A DNA stretch of 64,000 bases from Candidatus Nomurabacteria bacterium (GTDB lineage: Bacteria > Patescibacteriota > Minisyncoccia > Phycocordibacterales > UBA9973), in the NCBI GenBank assembly GCA_026395965.1, contig JAPLXS010000006.1, forward strand, positions 233,165 through 297,164. Reading direction: 5' to 3'. A program made the position numbers and the translations under genes. Positions within the stretch are counted from its first letter, which is position 1, and every line of letters begins with the position of its first letter. Below the pieces are notes generated by a model. The model did not search any database. It was not told the origin of the DNA and was given only the letters and a program-made list of their open reading frames with translations. Of this stretch, positions 12,478-41,538 are shown in pieces.

Positions 12478-12634
12478 GAATTAATAATTACGAATTAGGA
12501 ATAAAAAATACCATGACAGTGTCATGGTATTTTTTATCTAGTATTATTTTTTTAATTTTTAATTATTGTTCTCTCCCCTATTCCAATTCCTAATTCCTAA
12601 TTCCTAATTCGTAATTATTAATTCTTAATTATTT
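12471..12634. repeat. Heptamer array (12471-12502), terminator hairpin (12503-12536), then inverted 8-unit heptamer array (12579-12634)
   Basis: taattaagaattaataattacgaattaggaata | aaaaaataccatgacagtgtcatggtatttttt | tattccaattcctaattcctaattcctaattcgtaattattaattcttaattattt; stop codons of jag and of the 503 aa gene lie inside the arrays. Confidence 0.7.
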
Positions 12635-14136
12635 AACCCCAACCCCCACAATGTTGAATCTTTTTTATTTGTAAAGAATAATGTTTTTTCTTGTTTGTCT
12701 AAAAATAAATTAGTTCCGTCTACTGGAGTTTCTGAAGTTGAATTAGCTATTGTTTCAGAATCTCCAGTTGTAGAATTTATTTTTATAAAAAAATCATCAA
12801 AAGAAACCAATCCTTGATACCAAGAGTCAGGATACTGATTTCCATTAATAACATTTGGAACACTACAGTAAATGGTTATATTGTCTATACTCCATACACA
12901 TTTGTCTGACAAACCATATCTATCTAGTTCTTTTGTAGTGTGTTTTTTAATATCAAAAATTGATAGTTTGGGGCCACTAGATGTAGATGTGCTAAACAAA
13001 ACAAGAGAACCATTGTGGTTTACTAAAGTGGTGAGCCCAGGTACTCCCCCAAAAACCTTTGTAGTAGTTTTAGTTGTTGTATTTAAAACAAAGATAGTGC
13101 CATTTGCAGTATAAGATGGTTTTGTTGTTAGATATATTTTTTGATTGTTATCCCATTGTGATAGCCATTCTGTAAAAGGAGAATTAAAAACTATATCTTT
13201 TTTTGTGTTTCCAAATGTTCCGACGACACCAGATGCACCGTTGTTGTTTTCTGTTATATAGAAAAATTTAGTTTTATCGATAGAAGTGCTAAAATCAGAA
13301 ATATTTTGAGGTAAAAATTCTCCAGACGGAGCACCAAGCGAAGCCATAAAACTATTTATAGATTTATCTTCTGAGAGATATCTGTAAACAAAAGTATTAC
13401 CTGTATTATCAAAAAAAGTTTCATAAATACTTGGAATTGTAGAATTTGAAATCTTCTCTTTGTTTTTTGTATCTAAAAACATTTTATATATGTGGCCGTT
13501 CATCCTCTCTACGTATCTTATAGAAGGAGCTATCTCTGTAGTTCTTATTGGTGTTGTTGCCCCACCTTGTGCTATTTTTGTAAAATATGGAGCTGTAAAA
13601 GTATCTATTTTTCCTGTAACTCCCAAGTTGTTTAATTTTTGGAAAGATTTTATTGCATCTACTGTTTTTTTATCTAAAACCCCAGTTGTTGCTAGTTGTG
13701 GTTTTAGAGAAAGTGTAGTATTTAGAAATTTTTGAATTTCAATTCTACCCGCTTTTGTATCAGGAGATATTACTACCCTAGCTGGCTCAGGAGCCTGTAC
13801 TACTTGCGTATTTGGATTAACTGCTATTGGTCTTATATCGTCCAAAAAGGTGGCACCAGCAACAGAAAAGTCTGTTATTTGGTAGAACTTATTGACTGGT
13901 GTTGTAGATGTTCCTTGGTCTTGATTTTGAACTTCAGTTGATGTTTCATTGTTTGTAATAGGTGTTGTTGCAACCTGGCTACCATTACCAAAAGGGTTAA
14001 AACTTTGATACCAAGATGATTGGGTGTTTGTAGTACTAACACTAGGATTCTTGCTAGACCAAAAGTAAAAACCAAGGATAATTATCCCTACTATTATAAA
14101 TGTTGTTATAAAAATGATTTTTGTTTTTTGTGGCAT
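12625..14136 (-). CDS. Membrane-anchored secreted protein with peptidoglycan-binding domain and beta-rich C-terminal region
   Basis: N-terminal TM, T/S/Q-rich linker, PG_binding_1-like LATTGVLDKKTVDAIKSFQKLNNLGVTGKIDTFTAPYF. Confidence 0.55.
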   Translation of the reverse strand: MPQKTKIIFITTFIIVGIIILGFYFWSSKNPSVSTTNTQSSWYQSFNPFGNGSQVATTPITNNETSTEVQNQDQGTSTTPVNKFYQITDFSVAGATFLDDIRPIAVNPNTQVVQAPEPARVVISPDTKAGRIEIQKFLNTTLSLKPQLATTGVLDKKTVDAIKSFQKLNNLGVTGKIDTFTAPYFTKIAQGGATTPIRTTEIAPSIRYVERMNGHIYKMFLDTKNKEKISNSTIPSIYETFFDNTGNTFVYRYLSEDKSINSFMASLGAPSGEFLPQNISDFSTSIDKTKFFYITENNNGASGVVGTFGNTKKDIVFNSPFTEWLSQWDNNQKIYLTTKPSYTANGTIFVLNTTTKTTTKVFGGVPGLTTLVNHNGSLVLFSTSTSSGPKLSIFDIKKHTTKELDRYGLSDKCVWSIDNITIYCSVPNVINGNQYPDSWYQGLVSFDDFFIKINSTTGDSETIANSTSETPVDGTNLFLDKQEKTLFFTNKKDSTLWGLGLNN

Positions 14137-14147
14137 ATGTTTTTAAA

Positions 14148-15392
14148 TTAATGACCAGCATTAGGTCCAGTTGACCAATGCCAATTTTCTTTGGGTAAAT
14201 TCTTGAATCCATAGTTTATCGCATTTTTTTGTAGCCAAGTAAAACATTCTTTTGTGCTGGCTACTTTTTCAAATTTAGGATTTTGATTATCCCAATTAAT
14301 CAATTTTCCGTTACATTTTAAATCAACCGCAAGACCTTGCTCATGGTTTGATGTTCCTGGTTTTGCTGTTTGGGGTTTACATGAACTAGCGGGAACTGTT
14401 AACTTTGGGGCTGGGCAGTTTTTATTTCTTAGTGCTGTTTGCTCATCAAGTGACCTATATCCCCCTCCAGATAAAGTTATACCACCTAAATTAAAAGCAT
14501 CAGCAATCATAAGTTGAAGTTTTGGAGCGTAAGCAGAACAAAATCTAAAATTAGCTGTTTTTGTTTGTACCATTCTTGTTCCACCCGGGCAGTTATCAAA
14601 ACTATTTTTAGTTGGAGCTAAAGAACCCTCGTCTGATAGTATTGGTATTTCTTCTTCTTCTATTCCTGCAGTAACCGGATCGATTTTTACCCCTCCCCCT
14701 CCTAGTAGGTCTGGGTTGATAGTGTTTAATAAAGCATAAGAACCTAGTGCTATAAGTAGTCCAAGTATTGAGTTTTTTATTCTACCTTTTGCTTCTGTTT
14801 TACCAAAAATTGATTCATTACCCATATATTGAACACCACCTATAACAATCATTATAACAGCGAGCACAGCACAGAGACCTATGGCGATATTAAATATTGA
14901 ATTAAAATAAGTACCAATATTATCTGGTGCTGTTTTCATTCCTCCTATAGGAGCGAGGAGATTATAAACTTTTTCAGAAAATGTACCTGAAGAAGTTGTT
15001 CCTGGTGTTATGGTAACAACTTGTGTCTCTGTGGGGATAACAACAGCAGGAGTAACTTGTTCTGCGTGAGTTTGACTATCTAGTATTTTATAGAAGCATC
15101 CTTTTTTTAGTTCTAGTATTTTTTCTTGTGCAGTTCCCCCGTAAATTTCTGAATTAACCATTACTTTTTTGTCGTTATTGCAAGTCTGAAAAGCAGCTAT
15201 ATTTTTTGACACATTATGAGTATCAGAATAAGGAGATGTGTAGGGCTCTGTAGCTCCTTTCAATGGTATAGTAAAATAATAAACAGTGTCTGTTATTGCG
15301 CTAACTGTTTTTATTAATGAAAAAAATATAAATAAATATATAAATATATAAAATAATTTTTTATTTTTTGTTTGAGATTTATTTTTTTTCAT
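14148..15392 (-). CDS. Membrane protein with paired hydrophobic helices and C-terminal M15 (VanY-like, LAS family) zinc peptidase domain; putative secretion-system-associated cell-wall hydrolase
   Basis: N-terminal signal/TM, two hydrophobic helices IFNIAIGLCAVLAVIMIVIGG / ILGLLIALGSYALL, Gly-rich linker, M15 motif SNHEQGLAVDL. Confidence 0.6.
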   Translation of the reverse strand: MKKNKSQTKNKKLFYIFIYLFIFFSLIKTVSAITDTVYYFTIPLKGATEPYTSPYSDTHNVSKNIAAFQTCNNDKKVMVNSEIYGGTAQEKILELKKGCFYKILDSQTHAEQVTPAVVIPTETQVVTITPGTTSSGTFSEKVYNLLAPIGGMKTAPDNIGTYFNSIFNIAIGLCAVLAVIMIVIGGVQYMGNESIFGKTEAKGRIKNSILGLLIALGSYALLNTINPDLLGGGGVKIDPVTAGIEEEEIPILSDEGSLAPTKNSFDNCPGGTRMVQTKTANFRFCSAYAPKLQLMIADAFNLGGITLSGGGYRSLDEQTALRNKNCPAPKLTVPASSCKPQTAKPGTSNHEQGLAVDLKCNGKLINWDNQNPKFEKVASTKECFTWLQKNAINYGFKNLPKENWHWSTGPNAGH

Positions 15393-15393: not shown

Positions 15394-16425
15394 TTATAGA
15401 TTTATTAATAATTCATTACTTATTGTTTGAAACAATTCATTTATATTTTCAACTTTGAAATTAATTGTTGCATACCCTCCACGCGAAGACGGTCTAACTG
15501 TGAGCTCTGTTTTTCTAGAAGGAGTATCAACATCTTCACCATTTATTTTCCAGTTGTATGAAAAATCAGATTTATTGCCTTTTAGGGACATAAAATACGG
15601 TTCAGCAACAAGAGTCATTTCATCTTCTAGCATAAAAGTTTCTTTATCTAGTGCATTGTTGTAAAGAACACCTTCTGTTGGAGATTTTTTATAAAAAACT
15701 ATTTTTGGTTTGTATGCTTGTACTTCTGTAGTATTTTCAGCACTGTAATTACCACTAACAGCAGAAGCAACAACTGTTATTTCATTTTTCTGGTCAAACA
15801 TATCACTTTTAAAAAGATACGAATTTTTGTTGTATCCAGAAACTGATTGGTCTACTTCTCCATTTTTTTTCCAAGTATAAGAAATACTTCCATTGCCAGA
15901 TTTTATACTAGATGTATTTGGGATAGCTACAACACGTATAAAACTACCAACAGTTGGTAATATTTTTCCTTTATAAAATGGTGGAGCATATCCATCAACA
16001 GACTCCCACATTGTTTCTATTTCTGATGGAACTATTACAATTTTTTTGTTTATGGTTGTGACAGAACCAACTGGTTGAATATTTATATTTATAACACTAG
16101 CTGTATCTGGGCCAAGTGCTTTAAAAGAGTAGCTAAGTTTTCCTATTCCAGCGAGAACTGTAACACCCCCAGTTTGCCATGTTATTATTGCTTTGTTTAA
16201 GTCAGTAGCATAACTAGAAATATTTATAGTTACATCTTCGTATGGCTGAGGATTACTAGGGATTGTTTCTACGCTGATTTCCCCTTCTTGTACTTGAATC
16301 TGTGGTTCAGCAAAAGAAAAATAAGGCATACTTATTATTCCTATAATAAAAATACCAAAGATAAAAAATTTTATTTTCATGAATTTCACTAGATATATTA
16401 TATAATAATCTTGTAAATCAAACAA
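15394..16425 (-). CDS. Secreted hypothetical protein (signal peptide, beta-rich)
   Basis: N-terminal MKIKFFIFGIFIIGIISMPYFSFA; no recognisable catalytic motif. Confidence 0.5.
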   Translation of the reverse strand: MFDLQDYYIIYLVKFMKIKFFIFGIFIIGIISMPYFSFAEPQIQVQEGEISVETIPSNPQPYEDVTINISSYATDLNKAIITWQTGGVTVLAGIGKLSYSFKALGPDTASVININIQPVGSVTTINKKIVIVPSEIETMWESVDGYAPPFYKGKILPTVGSFIRVVAIPNTSSIKSGNGSISYTWKKNGEVDQSVSGYNKNSYLFKSDMFDQKNEITVVASAVSGNYSAENTTEVQAYKPKIVFYKKSPTEGVLYNNALDKETFMLEDEMTLVAEPYFMSLKGNKSDFSYNWKINGEDVDTPSRKTELTVRPSSRGGYATINFKVENINELFQTISNELLINL

Positions 16426-16565: not shown

Positions 16566-18395
16566 TTATGAATTTGTTGAAAGTAAGTCTTTCTTGGCTT
16601 TTTGAATAGCAAGTATTTGTGATGGATCTGAAGTAATGATCTGGTCCTCTGTATAAGAAGCTATTGTTTTAATAGCAACGTGTTTTAGCCCAGCAAAGAA
16701 TATACCCTCGCCTACATTTGCTTCAAGTAAGAGGTATTTTTCTTCATCTGTGAGGTTGAAAGTCTTTTGTAATACATCTATGGTTGCTGGGGATTGTTTC
16801 AAGAGTAGTTGAATAGATGAGTTTGTAACAATAGGTATACCATAAGGACTTTTCATAAAATCTCCTACGTCCTGAGTGATAGTAGCAAGACCTAGATAGT
16901 ATTTACGTCCTCTTTTTGCAATAGAATACAAGAAAGAAGCAGTATCTTCTGATTTCATCATCCACCAAGCCTCATCAACTACGAGCAATCTCTTTTTGAT
17001 ATTTTTACGGATAGAATTCCAAATATAGTGAGTGATTATATACATTGCGACAGGCTTAAGCTCATCCTCCATGTCTCTAACAGAAAAAACAATAAATTTT
17101 CTATTTATATCTACGTTTGAAGGCTGGTTTAAGAATGAAGCCCAAGAACCATGAGTATATTTTACCAATCTCTGCATAAGAGACTCACTTCCCTCCATAC
17201 CAGAAAGAACTACTTCAAAGTCTGAGAGCATTGGAGGTTCAATATTCATGAAATCTGAATTGGTTGTTATGTCTTTCAAGGCATAAGTTTCAGTAATAGC
17301 AGAGTCAACAAGTGAATCTTCTTCTGGTGTAAGTCCACCAAGCATTATTCTAAATAGACCAACAAGATTTATGGTATTTGCACGGAGTACATCAGCACCA
17401 GTTTCATCTCCTGTAGGTATTGGTAAGTCAAAAGGGTTTATGTGGTGGTCTGAAGAAAGAGCAATGTTGAAATATCTACCTCCCACTGCTTCTGCTAGGT
17501 ATTCGTATTCGCGTTCAGGGTCTATAACAATAACTTCTGTATCAAACATCAAAGTACGAATAATCTCTAGTTTTGTGGCATAAGATTTACCTGCACCAGC
17601 TGTAGCAAAGGTAATAGAGTTGTAGTTTGGTAAAGAAAATCTATCAAAAAGTATAAGACTAGAGTTATGACGGTTTACCCCATATAGTATTCCCCTATCT
17701 TCTGTTAGGTCAAAGGATACAAATGGGAAAATACTTGAAAGAGGTTCAGTATTTAGTTTTTGGTGTATACCTAAAATATCTGTACCTAATGGTATGACAC
17801 TTTTGAAGCCCTCATTTTGTTGAAATAATGCAGGTTTAAGATAAATAAGCTTTGAATCTAGAAGAGATTTTATCTCGTTCTCAATTTTAAATAAATCATT
17901 GTCATTCTCGGCATATACAGTGATATAAAGCCCGACATCAAACATTTTCTCTTGAGCTTGCATTAGATTGTTTCTCAAATCCTCTAGGTCTCTGTATGCT
18001 GTATCTAGCATCGGGTCACGAACGAGACCTTTTGATTCACGAATAGAAATCTGACTTTGAACCTCAGCTACTTTTTTCTGGAAAGATCTCATTATTTCTG
18101 CTGTATCTATAGGATGAATAAAAATAGAAATATCATAAACCTTGTCCAGGTTTATGATTGGAGAAAACCAGTTGTCACTGAGGTATCTTGGGTATGATAT
18201 TACGAAAAATGTTCTAGCTATTTTATCTCCAAGATTTAAAGATTTTGGTGTTATTTGAAGAGCAGAAGGAGCAATAATATCTTGTAGCTCAAGAGTTGCA
18301 GCTTTGTAGATTTCACTAGGCAAAACAGGCATAACCATACTTCGGTTATTTTTAAGATCGTCCCCTTTTCCAAATAATGATGAAAATATTGACAT
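16566..18395 (-). CDS. VirB4/PrgJ-type type IV secretion ATPase, central + ATPase portion (apparent C-terminal fragment of a split gene)
   Basis: VirB4 mid-region ARTFFVISYPRYL, Walker A ATAGAGKSYATK, Walker B RLLVVDEAWWMM. Confidence 0.8.
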   Translation of the reverse strand: MSIFSSLFGKGDDLKNNRSMVMPVLPSEIYKAATLELQDIIAPSALQITPKSLNLGDKIARTFFVISYPRYLSDNWFSPIINLDKVYDISIFIHPIDTAEIMRSFQKKVAEVQSQISIRESKGLVRDPMLDTAYRDLEDLRNNLMQAQEKMFDVGLYITVYAENDNDLFKIENEIKSLLDSKLIYLKPALFQQNEGFKSVIPLGTDILGIHQKLNTEPLSSIFPFVSFDLTEDRGILYGVNRHNSSLILFDRFSLPNYNSITFATAGAGKSYATKLEIIRTLMFDTEVIVIDPEREYEYLAEAVGGRYFNIALSSDHHINPFDLPIPTGDETGADVLRANTINLVGLFRIMLGGLTPEEDSLVDSAITETYALKDITTNSDFMNIEPPMLSDFEVVLSGMEGSESLMQRLVKYTHGSWASFLNQPSNVDINRKFIVFSVRDMEDELKPVAMYIITHYIWNSIRKNIKKRLLVVDEAWWMMKSEDTASFLYSIAKRGRKYYLGLATITQDVGDFMKSPYGIPIVTNSSIQLLLKQSPATIDVLQKTFNLTDEEKYLLLEANVGEGIFFAGLKHVAIKTIASYTEDQIITSDPSQILAIQKAKKDLLSTNS

Positions 18396-18672
18396 CCCGT
18401 TAGAGATAGGAAGCGCCTAATCTGTTTTTAAGATAACGCTTACCCATTCCCGATTTTAAATATAATTCTCTCGACCGAGCTTTTTTCTCGCTCTTACATG
18501 CTTCATAATAAATAATTTCAAACGGACCTCTTCCTTTTGTATAAGTAGACAAACCATTGTTGTGTTGCAGAAGGCGTTTCCGTAAATCTTTTGTACTTCC
18601 TGTGTATATATTACCATCTTTTTTACTTTTTAATATATAAGTGTAATAAAACATATATAATCTCTAACGGGA
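18395..18672 (-). other. Inverted-repeat leader element, site 2 (TCCCGTTAGAGAT ... ATCTCTAACGGGA) with GIY-YIG gene nested between the arms
   Basis: 13-bp perfect IR; GIY-YIG ATG 5 nt inside the upstream arm, its TAA stop inside the downstream arm, which directly abuts the VirB4 ATPase ORF ATG. Confidence 0.6.
18400..18654 (-). CDS. Small GIY-YIG nuclease family protein (UPF0213/YhbQ-like)
   Basis: FYYTYILKSKKDGNIYTGSTKDLRKRLLQHNNG...YTKGRGPFEIIYYE, 84 aa. Confidence 0.8.
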   Translation of the reverse strand: MFYYTYILKSKKDGNIYTGSTKDLRKRLLQHNNGLSTYTKGRGPFEIIYYEACKSEKKARSRELYLKSGMGKRYLKNRLGASYL

Positions 18673-18683: not shown

Positions 18684-19337
18684 TTATTGTAGTTTCATTC
18701 CTTGGCTAGTGTCGCCAGGGTTAAATGTTTTATAAAAAAGCTCGACTACTTGGTCTGTTTTAAGTTGAGAAGTTCTGATGCCTACTCTACCAAGACCACT
18801 GATAATAACACCTACTCTCTGGTCGAGCTGTGTACGCTTCTCCTCAAATGAAGCCATATCCATTGCCTTTTTTGTATCTTCTATTTGTTTTTTTGGAGCA
18901 CCGCTTCCCATAAAACTATCCATCATTTTATTGCTAGACTTTATAACATTTGCACTGTAAGGTACAACAATAAAAAAAGTTTTTGTCATTATATTTACTT
19001 CGTCAGTAAATGATTTTATGAAGTCTATGTATTCTTTGGTTTGTATTTTTAAAAGAGGCTCTGTTTGCTCTTTTAATCTTTCTTCTAGGGTCATTAGGTA
19101 TGGGCGTATGTCCAATCTGCGTGATTGCATACATATTTGAGTTGGAAAATCTAAACCGTTGAGAAAATTTTGGAACTCACTTATGATAGCTGTTTGTTCG
19201 TCTGCTGATTTAAGAGATAAGTTTAGAGAAGATGCTAGTAGTATAGAACGAAGACCACCATCCTTTAGTATGATGATGCCATTTCTTACTTCTTTAATTG
19301 GTACAAACTCCTGAGAGCTTTTTGCATCTATTGCCAT
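18684..19337 (-). CDS. VirB4/PrgJ N-terminal domain protein (apparent N-terminal fragment of split VirB4)
   Basis: Gram-positive VirB4 N-terminal pattern QEFVPI..NGIIILKDG...LNLSL...EQTAIISEFQNFLNGLD..TQI. Confidence 0.55.
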   Translation of the reverse strand: MAIDAKSSQEFVPIKEVRNGIIILKDGGLRSILLASSLNLSLKSADEQTAIISEFQNFLNGLDFPTQICMQSRRLDIRPYLMTLEERLKEQTEPLLKIQTKEYIDFIKSFTDEVNIMTKTFFIVVPYSANVIKSSNKMMDSFMGSGAPKKQIEDTKKAMDMASFEEKRTQLDQRVGVIISGLGRVGIRTSQLKTDQVVELFYKTFNPGDTSQGMKLQ

Positions 19338-19455: not shown

Positions 19456-19875
19456 TTACTCCTTCTCTCCTCTATTACTATCCTGCACATCTAAACTCCA
19501 CGAAAGGTCTTTTAGTTTATTTGATGTAACCATAGGAACAACAGATACTAGTTGTGGAGTAGAAGATTCTTCTTTTTCTTTAATTTCTGGTTTTACAAGT
19601 CTTTGTTTCCATATATATAATTTACCAGAAATAAAATAATTAAAGGCAGCTTCAAGGTAATAGATAAATGGCTTTTCATTTATCTTGTAAAATACCAAAA
19701 GAAATGACAATACACCTATGGGTATTATTAAAAATATACCAATCCACAAAGGAAATAATTTATAAACAACAAAGGCCATACCAGCCCCACCAACAATATA
19801 TATAAATTGGCGAAAAGTAAAAGGGCCAAATAATTTGTCCTCGACGTCAATAAATTGTGGTACTTTGAATTGCAT
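19456..19875 (-). CDS. PrgI/VirB3-like small two-TM type IV secretion protein
   Basis: 139 aa, pattern DVEDKLFGPFTFRQFIYIVGGAGMAFVVY + second TM, located upstream of VirB4 as in PrgI-PrgJ. Confidence 0.55.
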   Translation of the reverse strand: MQFKVPQFIDVEDKLFGPFTFRQFIYIVGGAGMAFVVYKLFPLWIGIFLIIPIGVLSFLLVFYKINEKPFIYYLEAAFNYFISGKLYIWKQRLVKPEIKEKEESSTPQLVSVVPMVTSNKLKDLSWSLDVQDSNRGEKE

Positions 19876-19921: not shown

Positions 19922-20272
19922 TTAAGATCTGGATGTTTTTATAATCGAACCAAGTATTTTTAATAATTCTTCACATTCACACATAAGTGTACCAGATTGT
20001 TCCTTGTTTAGAAAACCACTATCTGATAAAAGCTGTAACCAATAAAGTGTTTCCCTTGCCTCTTTGTATGAAATACTCATCTTTGAGATGAAATCATTTT
20101 TTGATTGTGCCCCTATTGCCTCCTCTATATTTGCCCCAATAGATGTTCCGGATCGAATTAATTGTTTTGAAAGAATAAATTCTTTTTTGTCTTTAGTTAA
20201 ATCCTGATATATTTTTATTATATTAAGACTGAAGGCATAACTCTTACTTCTTACGATATTGTCCGACTTCAT
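19922..20272 (-). CDS. Four-helix-bundle protein (TIGR02436-like; family commonly found in 23S rRNA intervening sequences)
   Basis: QLIRSGTSIGANIEEA...KMSISYKEARETLYWLQLL signature, 116 aa. Confidence 0.75.
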   Translation of the reverse strand: MKSDNIVRSKSYAFSLNIIKIYQDLTKDKKEFILSKQLIRSGTSIGANIEEAIGAQSKNDFISKMSISYKEARETLYWLQLLSDSGFLNKEQSGTLMCECEELLKILGSIIKTSRS

Positions 20273-21946: not shown

Positions 21947-24628
21947 TTAATGGTGTCCTCCTCCATGACTGTCATGACCAGAGCTTGCAGGTTTTGGGAC
22001 GGCAGCTGGCTTAGGTGCAGGTGCTACTGGAGCAGAATGTCCTCCCCCACCTCCATGACTTTCAGAACTCTTTGTTTGTATACCAAGTATCATATTGTCT
22101 CTTGCTTCAGAAGTACCTCTTACTGACCTGCCCGACATAGAGAAAATATTTGCGATTTTATTTGTTGTACTTCCAATATAATCTGATTGGTTTTTTGCAA
22201 CTTTATTTTTTACATCTTCTATCTTGTGCGTAATATTTTTAATATCTGAACCAAAAGAAGCTATTGATTTACCTGTACCGTTTCTTTCTAGTGCCAAGGC
22301 AGCATTAGCTTCATTTGTAGCTTTCAGAAGATCAGTTTTTGCTTTTTGTAGATCTTGCTCAGATTTATCTTTTGATTCTCTAAATTTAAGATCCGCTACA
22401 TATTTAGCTTCTTTTATTTTAGTTTCTTTTTCTGGGGTCATTCCTCCTGGGGAAGATTCTGCATCAGATTTCATTTTAGCAATTCTCTCCATATCTAGAT
22501 TGTATTCAGCTGTTGGAGCACCTTCAATCTTATTAACCTTAGCTTCTGCCTCAGTTTTTGCTTTTACTAGAGATTCAATATATGTCTTCCCTATCTTTCC
22601 GTTATCTGTAGCATATTCATCTGATCCATCTGGATTCTTTTTCCCGGTTTTACCACCCAGGCTGATTGAAGTTTTTTCTGCTTTTAATTCTTTTATTTCA
22701 TTAGAAAGTCTCATTTTTTCTGCTGGATCTGCAGTTTCAGCCATATCTTGTTTGGCTTTAGTTAACTTGTCTTCAATTTCATGTAGTTTATGTGAATTAT
22801 TATTTTCAACAAGTTTTTTACCAACTTCAGTCTTTCTTTTTTCAACTTCATCACCTCTTGTCGCCATAGTTTTTAGTTCTGCTAGTCTTGTTGTTCTTTT
22901 GGCTGCTTTGTCTTCTATTGCTTTCTTGTATCCACCTTCTTTTGCTTTTCCAAAATCTACTCCAAGATTTTTGCCTGTAGCAGCCCCTGCTTTTGTATTA
23001 CGAACATCAAAGCTTGCTTTATTTGCACCACTACCAATATCTATAAGTTTTGCCGCCATTCTACCTTTTAGTCCACCATCTGCTACTTTTTTAGCTAAGT
23101 ATGAATTGTTTTCAATATTACCTCCAAGTCTTCCAACGCTTGCCCTCATAGCAAGTGCGGCTCCACCAGTCATAGCACCAAGAGCGATTCCTCCTACAGC
23201 ACCACCAGCTTTAGATAGAGACTCTCCTATTTGACCAGACATACTTACTGCTACATCTTTTGCTTTCATAAGAAGGATCATTATAAATGCAAACGGAACT
23301 ATTATTTTTAAGACAAAAGTTAAACCACTTGCATTTAATCCACCTGGTGTATTCATTGCATCCATAACACCAAGTCCTTTACTTAGAAACCCGACAATCA
23401 AATACATAAAAAAAGCAAACACCGGAGCTACAAAAGCCATTGAAAGTAGGTCTGGCCACCACTTTTTCCAACCAATCATTTTTATATCTTGAAGCTGTGG
23501 AACTATATAACTAAAAAATGCGAGAGGAGCTAGTATCATAGAGAGCCAAAGCATTACCACCCTGCCTATGAAAATAAGAGCAGATGATGCAAATGCTATG
23601 GTTCCTACTATGTTGATCGCAGTAGAGAGAAAAACAACAATAATAAAACCACCGATAGATATACCGCCACTATTATCTGTCTCACTTGTATCAAGCCCTT
23701 TTGATTTAATTTTTCCTACTTCAGCGGAACTTGTTATAATAGCAACCGGATTAACTTTTGAAACTATTGCTTCAGATAATTTAATTTCTCCAAGATCACC
23801 CCGTTCACTAACAACAGGAAGAGGGTTACCACTCTCATCTTTTTGAACTGTGCCTGTGATTATTGTTTTATCATTATAAAAAACTCGCGCTAAAATATTT
23901 GAAGTATCTATAATAACTTGGGTTGTAAACAAGCTGAAGTTTATAAGTAGTCCAATGATAACTACATTGATAATCATTTCTTTTGTTTTAACACTATGTA
24001 ATTCCAAGATTGTTCCAAAAGCGATATATAGTAAAACAAATATGAAAAACATATTACAAAAGTCTCTTACTATTCCCCACCCACTAAGTACAAATTCTGA
24101 ACGATAAGAAACATCGCTAAGAGAATACATAAAAGTAAAGTCTAATGCTCTACCAGAAAGTCCAAAAACAAATGATGTAGGTACAAAAAATATATAGTAT
24201 AAAAGTTGAGCACCGCAACCTTTCAACCCGTCTCCAGAAGTAATCCCACAAGGCGGAAGTCCACCAGAGTTTTCTTGTTGTGTTGGTGTTACCCCTGTTC
24301 CAGATAATGCACCTACAGTAGTAGTTTGAGCATTAGCAACTGCTTCTTTACACTGACTATAAGAAATACCTGTCTGTGAACTACTTGCTGCTTCATCAGC
24401 TGTCCTATCTGCATTACACTCATTTAGTATTTTTGGAGTACTTGTAGATAATACTTCAGATACACCTGCAGCAGAAAATGATATTTTATTATAACTGTAC
24501 AAAATAGCAGCTTCTACTTTGATACTTTGTATTTTTGGAGTATTTTTTATTCCAAGACCCAAAGTAAATGGCGCAAATAATTGCACAAAAACTGAAAGTA
24601 TTAGAATGTATGGTAAGAATTTCTTCAC
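21947..24628 (-). CDS. VirB6/TrbL-like (TcpH/PrgH-type) polytopic membrane protein with long C-terminal coiled-coil and Gly/His/Pro-rich tail
   Basis: Signal peptide, at least 6 TM helices in residues 150-460, glycine-zipper AGGAVGGIALGAMTGGAALA, K/E-rich coiled coil, tail GGGGGHSAPVAPAPKPAAVPKPASSGHDSHGGGHH. Confidence 0.55.
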   Translation of the reverse strand: MKKFLPYILILSVFVQLFAPFTLGLGIKNTPKIQSIKVEAAILYSYNKISFSAAGVSEVLSTSTPKILNECNADRTADEAASSSQTGISYSQCKEAVANAQTTTVGALSGTGVTPTQQENSGGLPPCGITSGDGLKGCGAQLLYYIFFVPTSFVFGLSGRALDFTFMYSLSDVSYRSEFVLSGWGIVRDFCNMFFIFVLLYIAFGTILELHSVKTKEMIINVVIIGLLINFSLFTTQVIIDTSNILARVFYNDKTIITGTVQKDESGNPLPVVSERGDLGEIKLSEAIVSKVNPVAIITSSAEVGKIKSKGLDTSETDNSGGISIGGFIIVVFLSTAINIVGTIAFASSALIFIGRVVMLWLSMILAPLAFFSYIVPQLQDIKMIGWKKWWPDLLSMAFVAPVFAFFMYLIVGFLSKGLGVMDAMNTPGGLNASGLTFVLKIIVPFAFIMILLMKAKDVAVSMSGQIGESLSKAGGAVGGIALGAMTGGAALAMRASVGRLGGNIENNSYLAKKVADGGLKGRMAAKLIDIGSGANKASFDVRNTKAGAATGKNLGVDFGKAKEGGYKKAIEDKAAKRTTRLAELKTMATRGDEVEKRKTEVGKKLVENNNSHKLHEIEDKLTKAKQDMAETADPAEKMRLSNEIKELKAEKTSISLGGKTGKKNPDGSDEYATDNGKIGKTYIESLVKAKTEAEAKVNKIEGAPTAEYNLDMERIAKMKSDAESSPGGMTPEKETKIKEAKYVADLKFRESKDKSEQDLQKAKTDLLKATNEANAALALERNGTGKSIASFGSDIKNITHKIEDVKNKVAKNQSDYIGSTTNKIANIFSMSGRSVRGTSEARDNMILGIQTKSSESHGGGGGHSAPVAPAPKPAAVPKPASSGHDSHGGGHH

Positions 24629-24692: not shown

Positions 24693-26819
24693 CTACCAAA
24701 TATTTAATACTTGTTCGTAGTCTGCTGCTGTTCCATCTGGGTAATCACTACAGTTTGTTCCTCCTGTGTTGGAGGAAGTAGCTGAAAGGTAATTATAATG
24801 AGTGTATGTCGAATTGATAGTATAGTCACTCATAAAATATATATCTCTTGGTTCAGGTTCAAGTGATTTATTTATCAACGGAACAATGGGAACATCTAAG
24901 GTTAGAGGGTCATTGTGGCATTTAAATATATATTTTTGTGTTGGGTTTTGTACGTAGTAAGGACCTCTTTCAGTAGGTTTGTACCAAGGGTTACCAAATC
25001 TTGCAGTTGGTCCTGTGTAGTTTGGATTTACTGTGCCAGCTTTGTTTGTGGTTTGTGCATAACACTGGTTTATAAGGTCATCTATGTTTTCAACATAAGG
25101 TTTTAGAGTATCTATCTCCCTATATATCATATCTATATCTGTTTGTGTTTTTAATGTTGGGGCTATTATATAGTACTTTCTTAGAAGTTGTGCTAGTTTT
25201 GCTTTTTCTAAATCAGTAAATGTCAAAGGGTTCTGCTCTATAAGCAAACACTTGTTTTCTGTAGGGTCGTTTGGAGCTGAGTTTATTTCAGAGTCATGTG
25301 TTGCTACGTATGAGTTATTTATATCACCACCTGCATGACAATTCGGGTCTAGTGTATCTATTTTGCCGTCGATGTCGTTGTCTAAGCCATCGTTACACTG
25401 ATAAACAACTGATGGGTAAGTTACTTCAGAATCATGTGTATCTATGTAAGAGTTATTTATATCACCACCCGTATGACAACTTGGGTCAAGTGCATCTGTG
25501 AGACCATCGGCATCATTGTCTAATCCGTCGGAACATTGTTTCTTTTCACCATCAGATGGTAATGAATTTGATACAGTAAATGTAGTCCAAGGACCACAAT
25601 TGTTGTCTTCACTTGATTCTATTATAAGACCTGCATCACTGCTAGATTTTTTGTCGGCACAAGCTCTTATATAGTAAGTTCCCGATTGAGGAAAAGTATA
25701 TAAAACTTTTGCAGTATTGTTTGTACCTGCTGATAGTACTGGTAGATTTACATTTAATTCAACATTCCCATTTGTACTTATATTGTTGCTTGTTGGGGCT
25801 GTTTTTGAAATTGTAAAAAAGGTAGAGAAACCAGTTACAGTGGAACCCTTGCCATCATTTCTAATGATAGATGTAAGAGTTACGGGTGTGTTTATAAGAG
25901 CAGTAGCTGGAGTAGTAAAACCAGATATTAAATCTGGACTCATACTCACAGGTGAGCTTGATTCTGAAAAATGATCTGGAGTGTATGCTTTAGTCAAGTC
26001 TCCTCCTGTATGACAATTTGGGTCGAGTGTATCTACAAGACCATCGGTATCGTTGTCTAGCCCGTCGGAACATTGTTTTATATTTCCTCCAACATTAACA
26101 AATACACTACCACTTACATATCCTAAGTCCCCCATACATGTGACTATATAAGACTTATTTGACGAAAGCGTACCAGTTTTAAATGATCCACTTGTACCTG
26201 TTCCGTTGCCGAAACCCGACTGACATGAAGTAGTATTTGTTGAAGTCCAACTCACAGTAGAAGACGCTCCCGATGCAATAGCTTGAGGACTAGCAGAAAC
26301 GGCAACTGTTGGCAAAAGATTGCTACCATCAGTTACACTCACAACTACGTTGTCTACCCCATCACCAAACTCTCCTGTACAGATTATTGTATAAGACTTG
26401 CTGTCAGACAAAGCTCCTGTTTCAAATGTTCCTGTTGCAGGAAGTACTTTGTCATCGCCGGCATTACAAGAAGTAGTATTGATTGAAGTCCAACTAATAG
26501 TCGATGATTTACCAGGTGCAACTTCTGAAGGGCTAGCTGTAGCCATAACTGTGGGTATGCCTGTACCGTCTACAAAGTTTGTACAAAGTGGAGGGTTGAC
26601 TGCTTTGTTGGTACACTCTGGTGTTTTATCTGCTACCAAGGGTACGTTTTTTTTGAATAAACTATTTATAAGCGGTGAAAATAGTTTTCCAACACTTGTA
26701 GATGTTTTTACACCAAAAGAATCTCTGTTGTTATAGATTAAATACCCGGATACCAAAAGTAATATAACAATTATTATTGTTATTATTAGAGCTTTACTTT
26801 TTTGGGGTGTATTTTCCAT
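24693..26819 (-). CDS. Secreted/anchored protein with tandem Ig-like domains and three Cys-flanked DGLDND-DG Ca-binding-like modules
   Basis: N-terminal TM; repeated about 55 aa units (SSTISWTSINTTSC / SSTVSWTSTNTTSC); motif C-x-DGLDND-x-DGL-x-D-x-LDP-x-CH three times. Confidence 0.55.
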   Translation of the reverse strand: MENTPQKSKALIITIIIVILLLVSGYLIYNNRDSFGVKTSTSVGKLFSPLINSLFKKNVPLVADKTPECTNKAVNPPLCTNFVDGTGIPTVMATASPSEVAPGKSSTISWTSINTTSCNAGDDKVLPATGTFETGALSDSKSYTIICTGEFGDGVDNVVVSVTDGSNLLPTVAVSASPQAIASGASSTVSWTSTNTTSCQSGFGNGTGTSGSFKTGTLSSNKSYIVTCMGDLGYVSGSVFVNVGGNIKQCSDGLDNDTDGLVDTLDPNCHTGGDLTKAYTPDHFSESSSPVSMSPDLISGFTTPATALINTPVTLTSIIRNDGKGSTVTGFSTFFTISKTAPTSNNISTNGNVELNVNLPVLSAGTNNTAKVLYTFPQSGTYYIRACADKKSSSDAGLIIESSEDNNCGPWTTFTVSNSLPSDGEKKQCSDGLDNDADGLTDALDPSCHTGGDINNSYIDTHDSEVTYPSVVYQCNDGLDNDIDGKIDTLDPNCHAGGDINNSYVATHDSEINSAPNDPTENKCLLIEQNPLTFTDLEKAKLAQLLRKYYIIAPTLKTQTDIDMIYREIDTLKPYVENIDDLINQCYAQTTNKAGTVNPNYTGPTARFGNPWYKPTERGPYYVQNPTQKYIFKCHNDPLTLDVPIVPLINKSLEPEPRDIYFMSDYTINSTYTHYNYLSATSSNTGGTNCSDYPDGTAADYEQVLNIW

Positions 26820-26842
26820 ATATTTACTTAAATAATTATTAT

Positions 26843-29815
26843 TTATTTACAATCAGGGTCTTGTGAGTCTACTAGTCCATCCATATCGTTGTCTAACCCG
26901 TCTGTACATCTTAATCCGTCTTCATGTGAACCGATAATATCTGAAGGGTCATAATAAAGTATATCTTCTTCGGCAAAACATTCTTCGTATTTTGTTTTGT
27001 ATTGAGCAAAGGTTAAGATATTACCTGCACTAGTTGCATTTTTTATACAATTTTTGTAGTCAATTAAACACTGAGCATTATTTGTATCATTTTCACATTC
27101 TTTTCTTGTCGCAACACAAGCATTTATTGCAAGTTGATTTAGGTTATTTAATTGTGACAACAATTGAGCATCACGACGATCTTGAGCAGCTTTTATGATT
27201 ATACTTACTTCTTTCTTGATACCATTTAGTTTCGAAGTGTTGAGACTAGCTGTACTTGCATCATTTGCATAGTTTGTTTTTTTTGTGTTTACATCTTCAT
27301 TTTTTCTAACAATGTTTTTTGTCATATTGTATCCTTCTTCTACCATTGGAACATATGCAGTGTTTTTTATTAGAGTTGATATTTTCTCACTTTCGTTAAA
27401 CTCATGTTGCATTGTTTCATAGGTATCTTTAAAAGCTTTAGCATATTTTTCATAAGCCATTGTTATGAGTTTGGGCACTCTTGTTTTTACAGAATTTGTA
27501 ACTACATTCATTGCATTGATTTCACGGCTGCCATCATTATCACCATAAGCTATTGCATAATGATTAGCAACTTCTGTCATTGGTAGTGATGTAAGTATTG
27601 ATTTCCATAGTGCACTATTTTTATTTTCTGCACGAATAGCTATATTTTCAGTTGGACTTTTGTCTGGATTAATCGGGAATATACTATTGAAATAATTTTC
27701 CCAAGATTCTTTTCCTTCTTTGTCCGCAGTCCAGTATGAAAATGTTAAACCGCCACTATTATCAAATAGATGTCCTTCTATTGATTGAGCATATTTTATA
27801 AAATAACTAGCTGTTTGACCTGTATTTGCTTTAAATGATGGGTTTGGTCCAGGGATACAATATTCAAGCTCACCAAGTTTTGGCATTACACTTGGTAGTA
27901 TTTGCAGTATTTCTTTTGTTGCGACTATGTAGTCTTTTTGTATTTGTATTACACCTCTTTTATCTATTGGACTTGTCTGGTTTTTACAAACACCTTTTAT
28001 TGTCCCTCCACACTTCCAGTTTTGCCATTCTTTGCCATTCCAAAAAGCCCTGTCACCTTTTTCCCATCCTGTGTAACCGTTATTGAATAACTTGGTATTT
28101 CCATCTGTTGTTACGTTGTAGTAATAATTTGAAGGATAATATCTTTGATTTGCTTCGTCATAGGGAGCTAAATTTATATATAAGTTTGGCTCATTTGTAT
28201 AAGCATTCCAGTTGCCTAGTGATATGGTAGGTGTATGTATATATGTGTTTCCAAGGTCACGAGTTAGATCAAATTGACTATTTGTGTATCCACTATAACC
28301 TGAGTTGTTTGCCCCAGTGTTGTCACCCAAGTAATCATTTGAGGTGTTTGACCCGTATCCACCAACACCAATATTTTCGTTGTTGTATGTATATGTATTA
28401 TCTGAAAGACTAGCTAGTCCGTTTGATTTAAATTTATCTAAAAGATTTGAAAACAGACTACTAAGCGAGTCATTTATAGTCTTTGCTACTTCTAATTGAC
28501 GATCTGGAGAGTTTATATAACTTGAAAGTTTGTCTTTTATGATACTTCCAGGTGTAACTACATTCCACTTTGTACAAACGTCGTAGTTTGGATTAGCGCT
28601 ACTTTTATTGGGACTAAATACATACTGCTCATTTAATGAACTTGCATAATTATTTGCAAAAGAAGGTGCTTCTGCTGGACCAATATCAGATTTAATTTTT
28701 GGCTTACCTGGACCATCATATATCTGCCATTCAGCACATGTTTTTTGACTCAAAAATCCGTTGTTTTGAGCGACTTCATCTTTTGTTTCAGATGTTTGTT
28801 GAGCTATTCTATCTGCTAGTTTTTGGCTAGCCAGCATATTGAATCCAAGAGGATTGTTTGACTCTTTTTGAGTTAGTGCCATATATCCATCCCACCCGCC
28901 TGATGAAAAATCATTTGCAAAATTGTTGTTTGCTCTTTGTGATCTTTGAAGTGCTGTTTCTGGTGTACCTGTGTCTACATAGGAATTTTTGTCTGTTATA
29001 AATGCTGCTAAATCAGAAGTTAGTGAATCGAGGAAGTTGGCCGCACCGTACTTTAGAGCACCTGCATTGTAACCGGTTACGATAGATCTAGAAAAATCCT
29101 TACCATATGGAAATGCCCCATTTGAAAACCTTTGAACCCCTTGGTCATATACATTTTTTTCTATACCATTTGTAAACTTTGTAACACTTTGGACATACAT
29201 GGGGTTTCCATTTAAACCATGGTTGACCCAGTTTACAGTCTGGTGGGTCATAGAAGCGAGTTGGTTTTGTGCTAGTCTTGTTGCTAGTCCGTTGAAACAA
29301 TCTTCTCTTTTTTTATTTGCTTCATCTATTGAGATTGAGTTATCTATTTTTGTTTCAAGTGATTTGTTTATAGTTTTGCCTACTCGTGTACAGTCTATAG
29401 AGTCAACAAGTGGAGCAGCAGCATCACTTACGTAAGGTATCCATCCAGCAACGTTGGTAAGAACATCTTTTCCTGCCTGACAAACAGTGGATTGTGCACC
29501 TGCAACAGTTTCCGACCCCATAAAATCATCCAAAAGTTTGTTTGCTTGGTTTTTTATAAAATCTGTCATTTGTGTTGAAACTTTATCAACAATACCAGTA
29601 CAACCAACAACACCCATCAGGGTGTCTGTATTTAGTATATTTTCAGAATTTACTTGATATGGATTATCTCCACTATTTGGATTGTCCCAATTTAGACCGC
29701 CGTCACCAGTTGCACTAGCTACATAAGGAAAAGAAAATTGAGAAAAAGAAATAACTATAGAAATTATAAAAAAAATTGATATTGTCTTGAATGTAAATAT
29801 ATTTTTTCTATCCAT
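26843..29815 (-). CDS. Giant secreted protein (990 aa) ending in the same Cys-flanked DGLDND-DG module
   Basis: Signal peptide; Asn/Tyr/Gly-rich; C-terminal LRCTDGLDNDMDGLVDSQDPDCK. Confidence 0.55.
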   Translation of the reverse strand: MDRKNIFTFKTISIFFIISIVISFSQFSFPYVASATGDGGLNWDNPNSGDNPYQVNSENILNTDTLMGVVGCTGIVDKVSTQMTDFIKNQANKLLDDFMGSETVAGAQSTVCQAGKDVLTNVAGWIPYVSDAAAPLVDSIDCTRVGKTINKSLETKIDNSISIDEANKKREDCFNGLATRLAQNQLASMTHQTVNWVNHGLNGNPMYVQSVTKFTNGIEKNVYDQGVQRFSNGAFPYGKDFSRSIVTGYNAGALKYGAANFLDSLTSDLAAFITDKNSYVDTGTPETALQRSQRANNNFANDFSSGGWDGYMALTQKESNNPLGFNMLASQKLADRIAQQTSETKDEVAQNNGFLSQKTCAEWQIYDGPGKPKIKSDIGPAEAPSFANNYASSLNEQYVFSPNKSSANPNYDVCTKWNVVTPGSIIKDKLSSYINSPDRQLEVAKTINDSLSSLFSNLLDKFKSNGLASLSDNTYTYNNENIGVGGYGSNTSNDYLGDNTGANNSGYSGYTNSQFDLTRDLGNTYIHTPTISLGNWNAYTNEPNLYINLAPYDEANQRYYPSNYYYNVTTDGNTKLFNNGYTGWEKGDRAFWNGKEWQNWKCGGTIKGVCKNQTSPIDKRGVIQIQKDYIVATKEILQILPSVMPKLGELEYCIPGPNPSFKANTGQTASYFIKYAQSIEGHLFDNSGGLTFSYWTADKEGKESWENYFNSIFPINPDKSPTENIAIRAENKNSALWKSILTSLPMTEVANHYAIAYGDNDGSREINAMNVVTNSVKTRVPKLITMAYEKYAKAFKDTYETMQHEFNESEKISTLIKNTAYVPMVEEGYNMTKNIVRKNEDVNTKKTNYANDASTASLNTSKLNGIKKEVSIIIKAAQDRRDAQLLSQLNNLNQLAINACVATRKECENDTNNAQCLIDYKNCIKNATSAGNILTFAQYKTKYEECFAEEDILYYDPSDIIGSHEDGLRCTDGLDNDMDGLVDSQDPDCK

Positions 29816-34411: not shown

Positions 34412-35611
34412 ATGAAAATATCGTTATTTTACAAGCCTTCTATTATAAAGGTTTGTTCTTTTTTTATACTATTATCTATTGTCACTTTCAGCCCAAAAAC
34501 TGCAAATGCCAGTTTTTTTACTGATTTTGCAAATTTAACAACAAAAGTTTTGGGTCTTAAGGCAAGCGCAGCTGATGCCGTGGAGCCACAAGGAGGTATA
34601 ACTCAAAATTCACAAACAATACCCCTTTTGGAATCATCAGTTAATCCTGATACTAAAAATATAAAAGATACACCTAGTATTATTGTAGATAATGAAGCTC
34701 TTTCATCTGAAAATATACAAGCTGTAGAAACTGATACTAACTCTTATGTTTCATCATCAGAGAAAATCATAACTTATAAGGTTAAGGAAGGTGAAACTCT
34801 AGGTAAAATAGCCGCAAAGTTTAATATTTCTAAAAATACTATTATTTATGCAAATACCACTATAAAGAATAATGTACTGAAAGTAGGACAAACACTTGTT
34901 ATTCTTCCTGTTGATGGTGTCTCTTATACAATAAAAAAAGGCGATACTTTAGCTTCTATTTCCAAAGCTTTCAAGGCTGATACCAACGATATCGCTGAAT
35001 ATAACGATATTTCTATCAATAAAGGACTCCAAGCTGGAGAAACAATAATAGTTCCAGGAGGAACAGCTATTGTTAAGAAGGCCGAACCTACTATTGCAAA
35101 AGCAGAAAACAAGGTTGAAAAAGAGCAACCTCAACCCAAGACCCAAATACAAGAAAGTTCAAATGATACAGAGGCTCAAACTCCTACACCTACCCAAGCT
35201 CCAAACACCGCAACAGGTAAAGGTATTTTAGGTGGATATATATGGCCATTCCCAAGTGGAACAGGAAGAGTTTCCCAAAAACTACATGACGATAATGCTT
35301 ATGACTTTGCGGCACCAAAAGGTACACCTATATATGCTATCCAAGATGGTAACGTTTTGATTGCAGATGGAAATGGTTACAACGGAGGATATGGATTGTA
35401 CGTAGTTATAGACTTTAATGATGGAGCACAGGCAATATTTGGGCATATGAGTAAAGTCACTGCTATCGCTGGAGAATCTGTAAAGAAAGGAGACATAATA
35501 GGATATGTAGGGTCTACTGGTAAATCAACAGGTAATCATGTGCATATCGGATATCGTGGAGGAATGTCAAATCCTTACAAAAATCTACCTTTAAATAGTG
35601 ATGGACTATAA
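34412..35611 (+). CDS. LysM-domain M23 family metalloendopeptidase
   Basis: Signal peptide, two or three LysM repeats (YKVKEGETLGKIAAKFNIS; YTIKKGDTLASISKAF), M23 motif GNHVHIGY. Confidence 0.85.
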   Translation: MKISLFYKPSIIKVCSFFILLSIVTFSPKTANASFFTDFANLTTKVLGLKASAADAVEPQGGITQNSQTIPLLESSVNPDTKNIKDTPSIIVDNEALSSENIQAVETDTNSYVSSSEKIITYKVKEGETLGKIAAKFNISKNTIIYANTTIKNNVLKVGQTLVILPVDGVSYTIKKGDTLASISKAFKADTNDIAEYNDISINKGLQAGETIIVPGGTAIVKKAEPTIAKAENKVEKEQPQPKTQIQESSNDTEAQTPTPTQAPNTATGKGILGGYIWPFPSGTGRVSQKLHDDNAYDFAAPKGTPIYAIQDGNVLIADGNGYNGGYGLYVVIDFNDGAQAIFGHMSKVTAIAGESVKKGDIIGYVGSTGKSTGNHVHIGYRGGMSNPYKNLPLNSDGL

Positions 35612-41500: not shown

Positions 41501-41538
41501 TGTATATTATTTTAAGTAATATACAGGTTTGGTTTTTT
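41501..41538. terminator. Rho-independent terminator
   Basis: aaaaaaaacctgtatattattttaagtaatatacaggtttggtttttt. Confidence 0.7.

Follow-up and report, generated by a model that had tools for sequence, protein, structure and literature searches.

A VirB2-like pilin fused to an M15B peptidase in an origin-proximal type IV secretion-like locus of Candidatus Nomurabacteria

The type IV secretion systems (T4SSs) of candidate phyla radiation (CPR) bacteria were surveyed by Quinonero-Coronel et al. 2025 (PMC12102498), who reported an MPF-FATA-related VirB4, VirB2-like pilins, proximity to dnaA, and no relaxase. In that survey, VirB1 was absent from most VirB2-bearing genomes, and only Paceibacteria had VirB1 homologues linked to virB4. 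In Patescibacteria, which are ultra-small bacteria, the T4SS is a conserved feature beside the replication origin, and the single species examined needs it for growth as an epibiont. Its role has been called “completely unknown” (PMC11665869). Here, we describe one gene of such a cluster, at positions 14148..15392 on the minus strand of a 64-kb stretch of contig JAPLXS010000006.1 from a Candidatus Nomurabacteria bacterium (the whole stretch is called the window below). The gene encodes a 414-amino-acid (aa) protein in which a VirB2-like pilin is fused to an M15B zinc peptidase, and the window has the arrangement described for Patescibacteria in PMC12102498.

Among described proteins, VirB2/TrbC/TraA pilins, including CPR members of PF18895 such as SEML1_0014-0019 of Southlakia epibionticum, resemble the window protein in having a signal peptide, two helices, and a short basic loop, and their genes likewise lie inside a T4SS cluster with VirB4, VirB3-like, and VirB6-like genes. 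However, they are only ~100-170 aa long, whereas the pilin core of the window protein is flanked by a 108-aa N-terminal ectodomain and a 152-aa enzyme, and an additional YxLLAPIG element, also conserved, precedes helix 1. The window locus also has a single pilin gene, in contrast to arrays of 2-11 in Saccharimonadia and Microgenomatia. On the enzyme side, PrgK (pCF10), TraG (pIP501), CwlT (ICEBs1), TcpG (pCW3), and diderm VirB1 are extracytoplasmic wall enzymes encoded in a T4SS cluster, as the window protein is predicted to be. The first four share further features with it, being encoded a gene or two after virB4, membrane-tethered, and expected to act where the channel crosses the wall. They combine SLT/lysozyme with CHAP/NlpC/LytM domains, are held by one N-terminal anchor, and are separate from the structural subunits; by contrast, the only enzyme of the window protein is M15B and its anchor is the pilin itself. 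The nearest CPR comparison is S. epibionticum ML1, in which SEML1_0007, with a Hedgehog/DD-peptidase (M15-fold) domain, and the lysozyme-like SEML1_0006 are encoded directly after virB4 in an origin-proximal T4SS cluster and are essential for epibiotic growth by transposon sequencing, as are the pilins (Wang et al. 2023, PMC10633639). These two proteins are separate and larger (1113 and 643 aa), have no annotated pilin domain, and the pilins are encoded separately. A first-pass annotation of the window, made from the letters and translations alone, had regarded an M15 peptidase in this setting as unusual; near virB4 it is not unique in CPR bacteria, SEML1_0007 being a separate and essential example.

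The hydrophobic hairpin of the window protein is the locus’s own pilin, not a borrowed tether. It matches the Pfam family T4SS_pilin (PF18895) over aa 157-216 with 34.3 bits (cut-off 26.6, E 2.6e-8), and the AlphaFold2 (AF2) model contains a helical hairpin (helices at aa 159-190 and 195-225) with a predicted local distance difference test score (pLDDT) of 82-90. Hydropathy, sequence, and model agree on the pilin pattern of a signal peptide, two hydrophobic helices, and a short basic loop. The mycoplasma integrative and conjugative element model ‘Mbov_0395 pilin-like conjugal transfer protein’ of NCBIfam was matched below threshold (25.5 bits, cut-off 40), and fold matches of the hairpin to other helical hairpins were non-specific. 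An exhaustive HMMER search with the core against 1.84 billion cluster representatives returned 15,184 matches at E<=1e-3, of which 3,093 reached E<=1e-10; the top 150 almost all have a length of 300-900 aa. When Pfam was run over an independent sample of 97 cluster representatives from this search, 79 matched PF18895 and six matched TrbC/VirB2 (PF04956).

Searching with the core only also returned stand-alone pilins of 114-175 aa, up to 70% identical, with a common layout of signal peptide, YxLLAPIG, two helices, NTINPDLL, and a short tail. Three of them, P0135 (52% identical), P0124 (62%), and P0143 (57%), occupy the same operon slot as the fusion: the position between orthologues of the flanking genes p343 and p503, 3' of a split VirB4 gene, holds these stand-alone pilins as well as the fused P0021, P0115, and P0082. 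The Pfam match and this positional orthology together identify the hairpin as a VirB2-like pilin core rather than a plain signal-anchor. Hidden Markov models (HMMs) of fused and of stand-alone cores detected no further pilin module within the 64-kb window. The likeness to VirB2/TrbC hairpins noticed at first pass was thus borne out, as were the anticipated HMM matches to M15 and pilin models, both above threshold, and the modelled hairpin; neither of the contrary outcomes named then, an ordinary signal-anchor or the lack of any M15 match, occurred. The description of an M15 enzyme on an unusual pilin-like tether is supported, with the extension that the hairpin is the pilin itself. A preprint entitled ‘A Novel Pilus System in CPR Bacteria’ was also considered and set aside; it concerns unrelated Ig-fold donor-strand pilins.

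The open reading frame (ORF), taken from the ORF list, has an ATG start and its stop codon at 14148-14150, and every string quoted at first pass is present at its position. An identical NCBI protein (P0001) is titled ‘MAG: D-alanyl-D-alanine carboxypeptidase family protein [Candidatus Nomurabacteria bacterium]’ and lies on a 333-kb contig. All parts described here are on the minus strand. A Sec-type signal peptide (aa 1-32, 15297..15392) consists of MKKNKSQTKNKK, a hydrophobic stretch, and VSA, after which cleavage is predicted; the hydropathy segment spans aa 12-35 and the model helix 10-29. It is followed by a variable N-terminal ectodomain (aa 33-140, 14973..15296) of low pLDDT in the AF2 model. 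This ectodomain is common to P0020, whose C-terminus is NlpC/P60, and a few other proteins, and its C71 and C99 are invariant within this subset; unrelated domains replace it in other close relatives. The pilin core (aa 141-235, 14688..14972), supported by the Pfam match, the identity to stand-alone pilins, and the AF2 hairpin, contains the motif YNLLAPIG (14943-14966), helix 1 (14823-14918), the basic loop GNESIFGKTEAKGRIK (14775-14822), and helix 2, ending in NTIN (14715-14774), all with verified coordinates. Its hydrophobic segments are IFNIAIGLCAVLAVIMIVIGGVQYMG (aa 165-190) and SILGLLIALGSYALLNTINP (aa 207-226), separated by the inter-helix loop NESIFGKTEAKGRIKN (aa 191-206). The mature protein would have ~382 aa and carries two domains beyond the hairpin, and so it is not a small, hairpin-only pilin.

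Between core and enzyme lies a flexible Gly-rich and acidic linker, GGGGVKIDPVTAGIEEEEIPILSDEGSLAPTK (aa 231-262, 14607..14702), which begins with the GGGG run seen at first pass (aa 231-234), has pLDDT <55 over aa 231-250, and is poorly conserved in the alignment. Such a long, flexible, and poorly conserved segment would suit a pro-protein in which the pilin core acts only to export and target the enzyme, which is then cut off in the linker and released. C-terminal trimming has a precedent among T4SS propilins in TrbC of RP4, and the stand-alone pilins stop a few residues past NTINPDLL. However, Pfam revealed no TraF-like or other dedicated peptidase gene in the locus, the linker shows no conserved cleavage motif, and a Sec signal peptide alone would be enough to export an enzyme. 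We consider release from a pro-protein, suggested by analogy with the TrbC propilin, improbable.

The C-terminal M15B (VanY/LdcB-like) zinc peptidase domain (aa 263-414, 14151..14606) matches VanY (PF02557) over aa 288-398 with 42.8 bits (Pfam curated cut-off 25, E 5.5e-11), and both this assignment and that to T4SS_pilin are far beyond chance. As had been noticed from the letters, it carries the zinc-binding and catalytic motif SNHEQGLAVD (aa 348-357, 14322-14351), which fits SxHxxGxAxD, and it has a second M15 motif, ENWH (aa 402-405, 14178-14189), which fits ExxH. In an alignment with 117 homologues (118 sequences), R313, S348, H350, G353, A355, D357, E402, W404, and H405 are invariant, and H350, D357, and H405 correspond to the zinc ligands of VanY/LdcB. 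The domain is confidently modelled (pLDDT >93) and has the LAS/Hedgehog-DD-peptidase fold. Its residues suggest that it is catalytically intact and would cleave or trim stem peptides. The conserved Cys pairs of the first-pass annotation proved to be six residues invariant in the same alignment (268, 285, 326, 338, 360, and 383), which fit an extracytoplasmic domain that is probably disulfide-bonded. MdbA-like oxidoreductases have been reported as enriched in CPR bacteria (PMC6744442).

The nearest solved relatives are the carboxypeptidases LdcB and VanY; the same fold recurs, at a slightly lower Z score, in the endolysins Ply500 and LysB4. Identity to these four is only ~26-29%, and the window domain differs in three extra probable disulfides and in having neither a resistance operon nor an endolysin context. 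The kinship with LdcB and VanY, the NCBI label, and a class A penicillin-binding protein gene 7 kb away could all suggest a housekeeping carboxypeptidase for maturation of the cell’s own peptidoglycan, held by a two-helix anchor and placed near the T4SS by chance. This is very improbable and, on context, strongly disfavoured, because the hairpin scores above the T4SS_pilin threshold and has stand-alone pilins as its orthologues at this operon position, and because close relatives bear lytic transglycosylases, NlpC/P60, or nothing in place of the peptidase, which is incompatible with a fixed housekeeping role. The Pfam VanY match could likewise suggest a vancomycin-resistance determinant, and NCBIfam vanXY and vanY_BG were matched weakly. 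However, the NCBIfam scores of 20-27 bits are far below cut-offs of 250-500 (vanXY 26.7 bits against a cut-off of 250; vanY_BG 20.7 bits against 400), and no vanH/A/X/R/S-type match was found among the Pfam-scanned window ORFs, several shorter ORFs lying outside the scan; this identity is practically refuted by score and context.

To place the window protein among its relatives, a core-alignment scan of one genome per species in GTDB gave 201 confirmed matches, and the best 80 of these 201 loci, from metagenome-assembled genomes of Paceibacteria, Nomurabacteria, and Parcubacteria, were analysed. Locus comparisons covered 86 related loci with 90 pilin-module ORFs, for which the start was approximated as the first Met. 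Fifteen of these ORFs are stand-alone pilins, and 75 have a C-terminal domain of ~95-245 aa (mostly 150-240). By BLAST clustering, Pfam, profile comparison, and a PDB search, 58 of the 75 C-domains were assigned to peptidoglycan-active families: 20 VanY, 14 SLT-type (SLT, SLT_2, and two divergent groups), nine NlpC/P60, seven C-type-lysozyme-like (weak matches, E 4.7e-4; L008-type), three Peptidase_M15_4, three YkuD, one 3D, and one CHAP-like that scored below the cut-off. The remaining 17 have no assignment, and no non-cell-wall function was found among the 75. L012-type C-domains are SLT-like by hhalign (95%). Simple catalytic motifs are kept in the non-VanY types, although these patterns are short and the evidence is correspondingly weak. 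The sample of 97 representatives adds Amidase_2, M23, and Peptidase_M15, together with N-terminal TIG/fn3 domains. The first-pass expectation that T4SS hydrolases are usually lytic transglycosylases or NlpC/P60 and CHAP enzymes therefore applies in one sense and not in another: the window protein has M15B only, but the SLT, NlpC, and CHAP types of monoderm T4SS hydrolases occur elsewhere as alternative alleles on the same pilin.

The exchange of these domains is sharply bounded. Across the eleven closest loci of the comparison, the core retains 74-85% identity to the window core, next to N- and C-domains that are unrelated. P0020 shares its N-domain and core with the window protein and ends in NlpC/P60. 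L061 and L071 are collinear at 83-88% DNA identity with two blastn gaps, which are the N-ectodomain and the C-domain, and homology restarts at the first base of p503. N-ectodomains form at least 23 clusters that assort independently of C-type. The same core and slot thus carry at least 10 peptidoglycan-enzyme families or none, and cassettes are exchanged between otherwise near-identical loci. This makes the window protein one allele of a polymorphic ‘pilin + wall enzyme’ family in which enzyme and N-ectodomain are fast-swapping cassettes.

Several members of the family depart from this pattern or from the named enzyme types. The L007-type C-domain (L007 6286-6774 and eight other loci) is marked by invariant GGTE, H..G....D, and E..H.H and by conserved Cys. 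These residues give it the look of a divergent LAS-type metallopeptidase, but neither PDB sequences nor the VanY and M15_4 profiles matched it significantly. Searches with the L021-type C-domain, marked by an invariant ‘RTNNPGNIGN’, gave no match. In tandem fusions (P0156, P0216, and P0230), 2-4 cores occur in a polypeptide of 443-891 aa. Four loci (L038, L040, L078, and L083) have two pilin genes; in L038, L040, and L083, each pilin bears a different enzyme (SLT-like and VanY in L040, 3D and CHAP-like in L083), the second pilin of L078 is stand-alone, and the second pilin gene of L038 and L040 lies 3' of p503.

What might such a protein do? The reading we favour, with about even confidence, is that it is a VirB2-type subunit of a T4SS-like machine that bears a wall enzyme on its outer face and processes peptidoglycan where the machine crosses a wall. 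It would be exported by the Sec pathway, lose its signal peptide, and then insert its two hydrophobic helices as a hairpin. The basic loop (K198, K202, R204, and K206) would be cytoplasmic and both the N-ectodomain and the C-terminal enzyme would lie outside the membrane, as suggested by the cleaved signal peptide, the positively charged loop, and the known topology of VirB2. The flexible linker of ~32 residues would keep the peptidase within the wall zone, at the assembly site of the secretion apparatus, and there the enzyme would cleave or trim the stem peptides of peptidoglycan, so that the pilin would supply in cis the wall-processing function of VirB1, PrgK, and CwlT. Because the enzyme would be tethered to the producer’s membrane and no immunity gene is present, the producer’s own wall is the default first substrate. 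The operon position, the occurrence of stand-alone pilins at this very position, the lack of another pilin module in the 64-kb window, the wall-directed nature of all assigned alternative domains, and the adjacent p503, with its peptidoglycan-binding domain and beta-propeller, support this reading. Further support comes from S. epibionticum, with SEML1_0007 and SEML1_0006 encoded right behind virB4 and essential like the pilins, and from the scarcity of VirB1 among VirB2-bearing genomes in the 2025 survey.

Still, a number of observations weigh against it. The link to VirB2 comes from Pfam and gene context rather than structure, because the core profile showed no sequence similarity to solved pilins; ‘T4SS_pilin’ is itself a family defined by computation, and a pilus has yet to be observed in Paceibacteria. 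The source genome is represented by the 64-kb window, and further pilins may exist elsewhere in it. VanY/LdcB relatives are carboxypeptidases that trim stem peptides and do not open the sacculus, and so a hole-making role would need endopeptidase specificity; the YkuD transpeptidases among the alleles are non-lytic. Enzyme-free pilins make up 15 of the 90, indicating that the enzyme is dispensable to the pilin. Moreover, where VirB4 is 94-97% identical, 40 of 53 species pairs differ in enzyme type, and two species pairs with VirB4 99.3-99.5% identical also carry different enzymes. The N-ectodomains are hypervariable and resemble binding modules (TIG, fn3), and this, together with the fast enzyme turnover, fits an outward, host-related target better than housekeeping of the producer’s own wall.

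These last points raise the possibility, which we regard as less likely, that the decorated pilin polymerises into or caps a filament aimed at a host, displaying an N-terminal binding module and a C-terminal enzyme. Such a pilus would attack or remodel host peptidoglycan at the point of contact, opening a way for uptake or exchange, and its cassettes would track host wall chemistry. F-type pilus structures show both ends of VirB2-type pilins outside the cytoplasm, on the outer side of the assembled pilus. Replacement of these ectodomains exactly at the edges of the conserved core, in loci whose DNA is otherwise well conserved, the independent assortment of both cassettes, and the change of enzyme between almost identical VirB4 backgrounds speak for this possibility, and the non-lytic members (VanY/LdcB-like and YkuD) and the host dependence of CPR bacteria agree with it. 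The T4SS and pilins are essential for host-dependent growth of S. epibionticum, and reviews speculate that the pilus is a conduit to the host. However, there is no co-varying immunity gene, since homology restarts at the first base of p503, and the enzyme must still cross the producer’s own wall. By a rough geometric estimate, two globular domains per subunit would crowd a VirB2-type filament, and the organism has no known host, just as its lineage has no observed pilus.

Cassette exchange of this kind invites comparison with polymorphic toxins. VgrG/Hcp/PAAR, LXG, CdiA-CT, and phage-tail lysin proteins likewise combine a conserved carrier with sharply bounded, fast-exchanged C-terminal cassettes, many of them peptidoglycan hydrolases. 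By contrast, the window family belongs to a T4SS pilin machine, has no adjacent co-varying immunity gene, and has a cassette at its N-terminus as well. In the bacteria-killing T4SS of Xanthomonadales, too, a T4SS is linked to peptidoglycan-degrading proteins. Its X-Tfe effectors are substrates in their own right, which VirD4 recognises by a C-terminal signal and which have partner immunity proteins, while the window enzyme is part of the pilin. Unlike in that system, no coupling protein (T4CP) was matched by Pfam among the window ORFs scanned, nor was a relaxase; several shorter ORFs of 120-178 aa lie outside the scan (e.g., 37610-37972, 41537-41950, 42077-42583, 48409-48855, 49535-49948, 56421-56897, and 62042-62578).

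In Paceibacteria and Nomurabacteria, the wall enzyme is physically part of the pilin, which partly explains the “missing VirB1”. The association of VirB1 homologues with virB4 in Paceibacteria may reflect these fusions, caught by VirB1 profiles. As a Rosetta-stone-type fusion, the protein also points to a functional link between pilins and wall enzymes; in Saccharibacteria, the pilins and an M15-fold protein come from separate genes, each essential. The known parts are an M15B peptidase, a VirB2-like pilin, a T4SS wall hydrolase, and an origin-proximal CPR T4SS; their combination appears to be undescribed, specifically an enzyme-carrying pilin with cassette polymorphism at both ends. Literature searches turned up no report of a wall enzyme joined to a VirB2-like pilin, although this is not proof of absence, and the combination is mentioned neither in the 2025 survey’s main text nor in Wang et al. 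2023, a 2025 FEMS review, or a 2024 PNAS perspective. The architecture is visible in precomputed Pfam annotations and is not hidden at database level. An enzyme-bearing pilin would be a new architectural theme for type IV secretion, and the family offers a testable clue to the role of the poorly understood CPR T4SS: which bond is cut, whose wall it is in, and whether enzyme type follows host type. More speculatively, a large CPR clade could possess a filament with interchangeable cassettes for binding a host and for cutting or modifying peptidoglycan, with which it drills into or remodels the host wall, although we think this rather unlikely. If true, cassette type would be a host-range determinant evolving by recombination, as in polymorphic toxins.

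The genomic setting of the fusion gene is conserved. The window is chromosomal and origin-proximal, with dnaA, dnaN, rnpA, yidC, and jag at 7.5-12.5 kb and ksgA at 30.8 kb, and the T4SS-like cluster lies between jag and ksgA with all genes on the minus strand. Downstream of the pilin gene, after an 11-nt gap, p503 (12625..14136) encodes an N-terminal transmembrane helix, a disordered linker, a PG_binding_1 domain, and a 7-bladed beta-propeller; the median gap between pilin gene and p503 is ~0 across 75 loci. Upstream, p343 (15394..16425), a secreted or membrane-anchored partner present in 80 of 86 related loci, ends 1 nt before the pilin ATG, and the two genes are translationally coupled. Neither Pfam nor a sequence search of the PDB gave a match for p343. 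Judged from its sequence, it may consist of about three beta-sandwich repeats, and it might be the counterpart of the Ig-like/PEGA proteins SEML1_0004 and SEML1_0005 of the S. epibionticum cluster. A scan for promoters and terminators gave signal at or below shuffle expectation.

Further upstream, the C-terminal P-loop part of the VirB4 ATPase (609 aa, 16566..18395) matches the NCBIfam VirB4-like CD1110 family with 363.5 bits (cut-off 325) and Pfam P-loop_TraG. The N-terminal part is a separate TraC-like gene of 217 aa (18684..19337), 55-88% identical to genes of 216-217 aa, with identity falling to 43% against a partial ORF at the cut end of L068. Equivalents lie at the same position in 72 loci, and in the six loci where precomputed Pfam annotation was checked, they carry PF26593 (TraC-like). 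A PrgI/VirB3-like gene (19456..19875; Pfam PrgI, 39.7 bits) and an 893-aa polytopic membrane protein with many hydrophobic segments (21947..24628) follow. The latter has no Pfam match, but an equivalent 800-1000-aa gene lies at the matching place in related loci, and it is a candidate VirB6-like protein. The order PrgI, VirB4 N-terminal part, VirB4 C-terminal part, p343, pilin, and p503 is kept in 71-80 of the 86 loci. Loci without the full order mostly reflect contig ends and occasionally a rearrangement (L024), while L074 has none of these neighbours.

Smaller features of the cluster and its surroundings were also recorded. The split of virB4 into a 217-aa TraC-like gene and one of ~610 aa is normal in all related loci, and the halves are usually a few bases apart. 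In the window, a GIY-YIG gene of 84 aa (18400-18654, minus strand; Pfam 67 bits) lies between them; because the halves nearly abut in related loci, it looks like a genome-specific insertion. L008 also has a gap of ~270 bp between the halves. A gene for a four-helix-bundle 23S_rRNA_IVP protein (19922-20272, minus strand; Pfam 100 bits) sits inside the cluster beside PrgI, and the T4SS cluster of at least one other genome has one too (L003 5412-5804). The C-terminus of the VirB6-like candidate contains a long coiled-coil or charged region and a Gly/His/Pro-rich tail (…HGGGGGHSAPVAPAPKPAAVPKPASSGHDSHGGGHH). Upstream of it, two large proteins (24693-29815, minus strand), one of 708 aa with a CARDB domain and one of 990 aa with no Pfam match, have equivalents of similar size in related loci and are likely surface components. 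Among the related loci, third-party assemblies (TPA_asm) titled ‘uncultured Candidatus Saccharibacteria’ (L010, L011, L018-L020, and others) show Paceibacteria-type synteny and 87-91% VirB4 identity with the window, and their taxon labels are probably wrong. Finally, a LysM + Peptidase_M23 protein is encoded ~19 kb from the fusion gene (34412-35611, plus strand), and thus wall hydrolases also exist outside the T4SS cluster.

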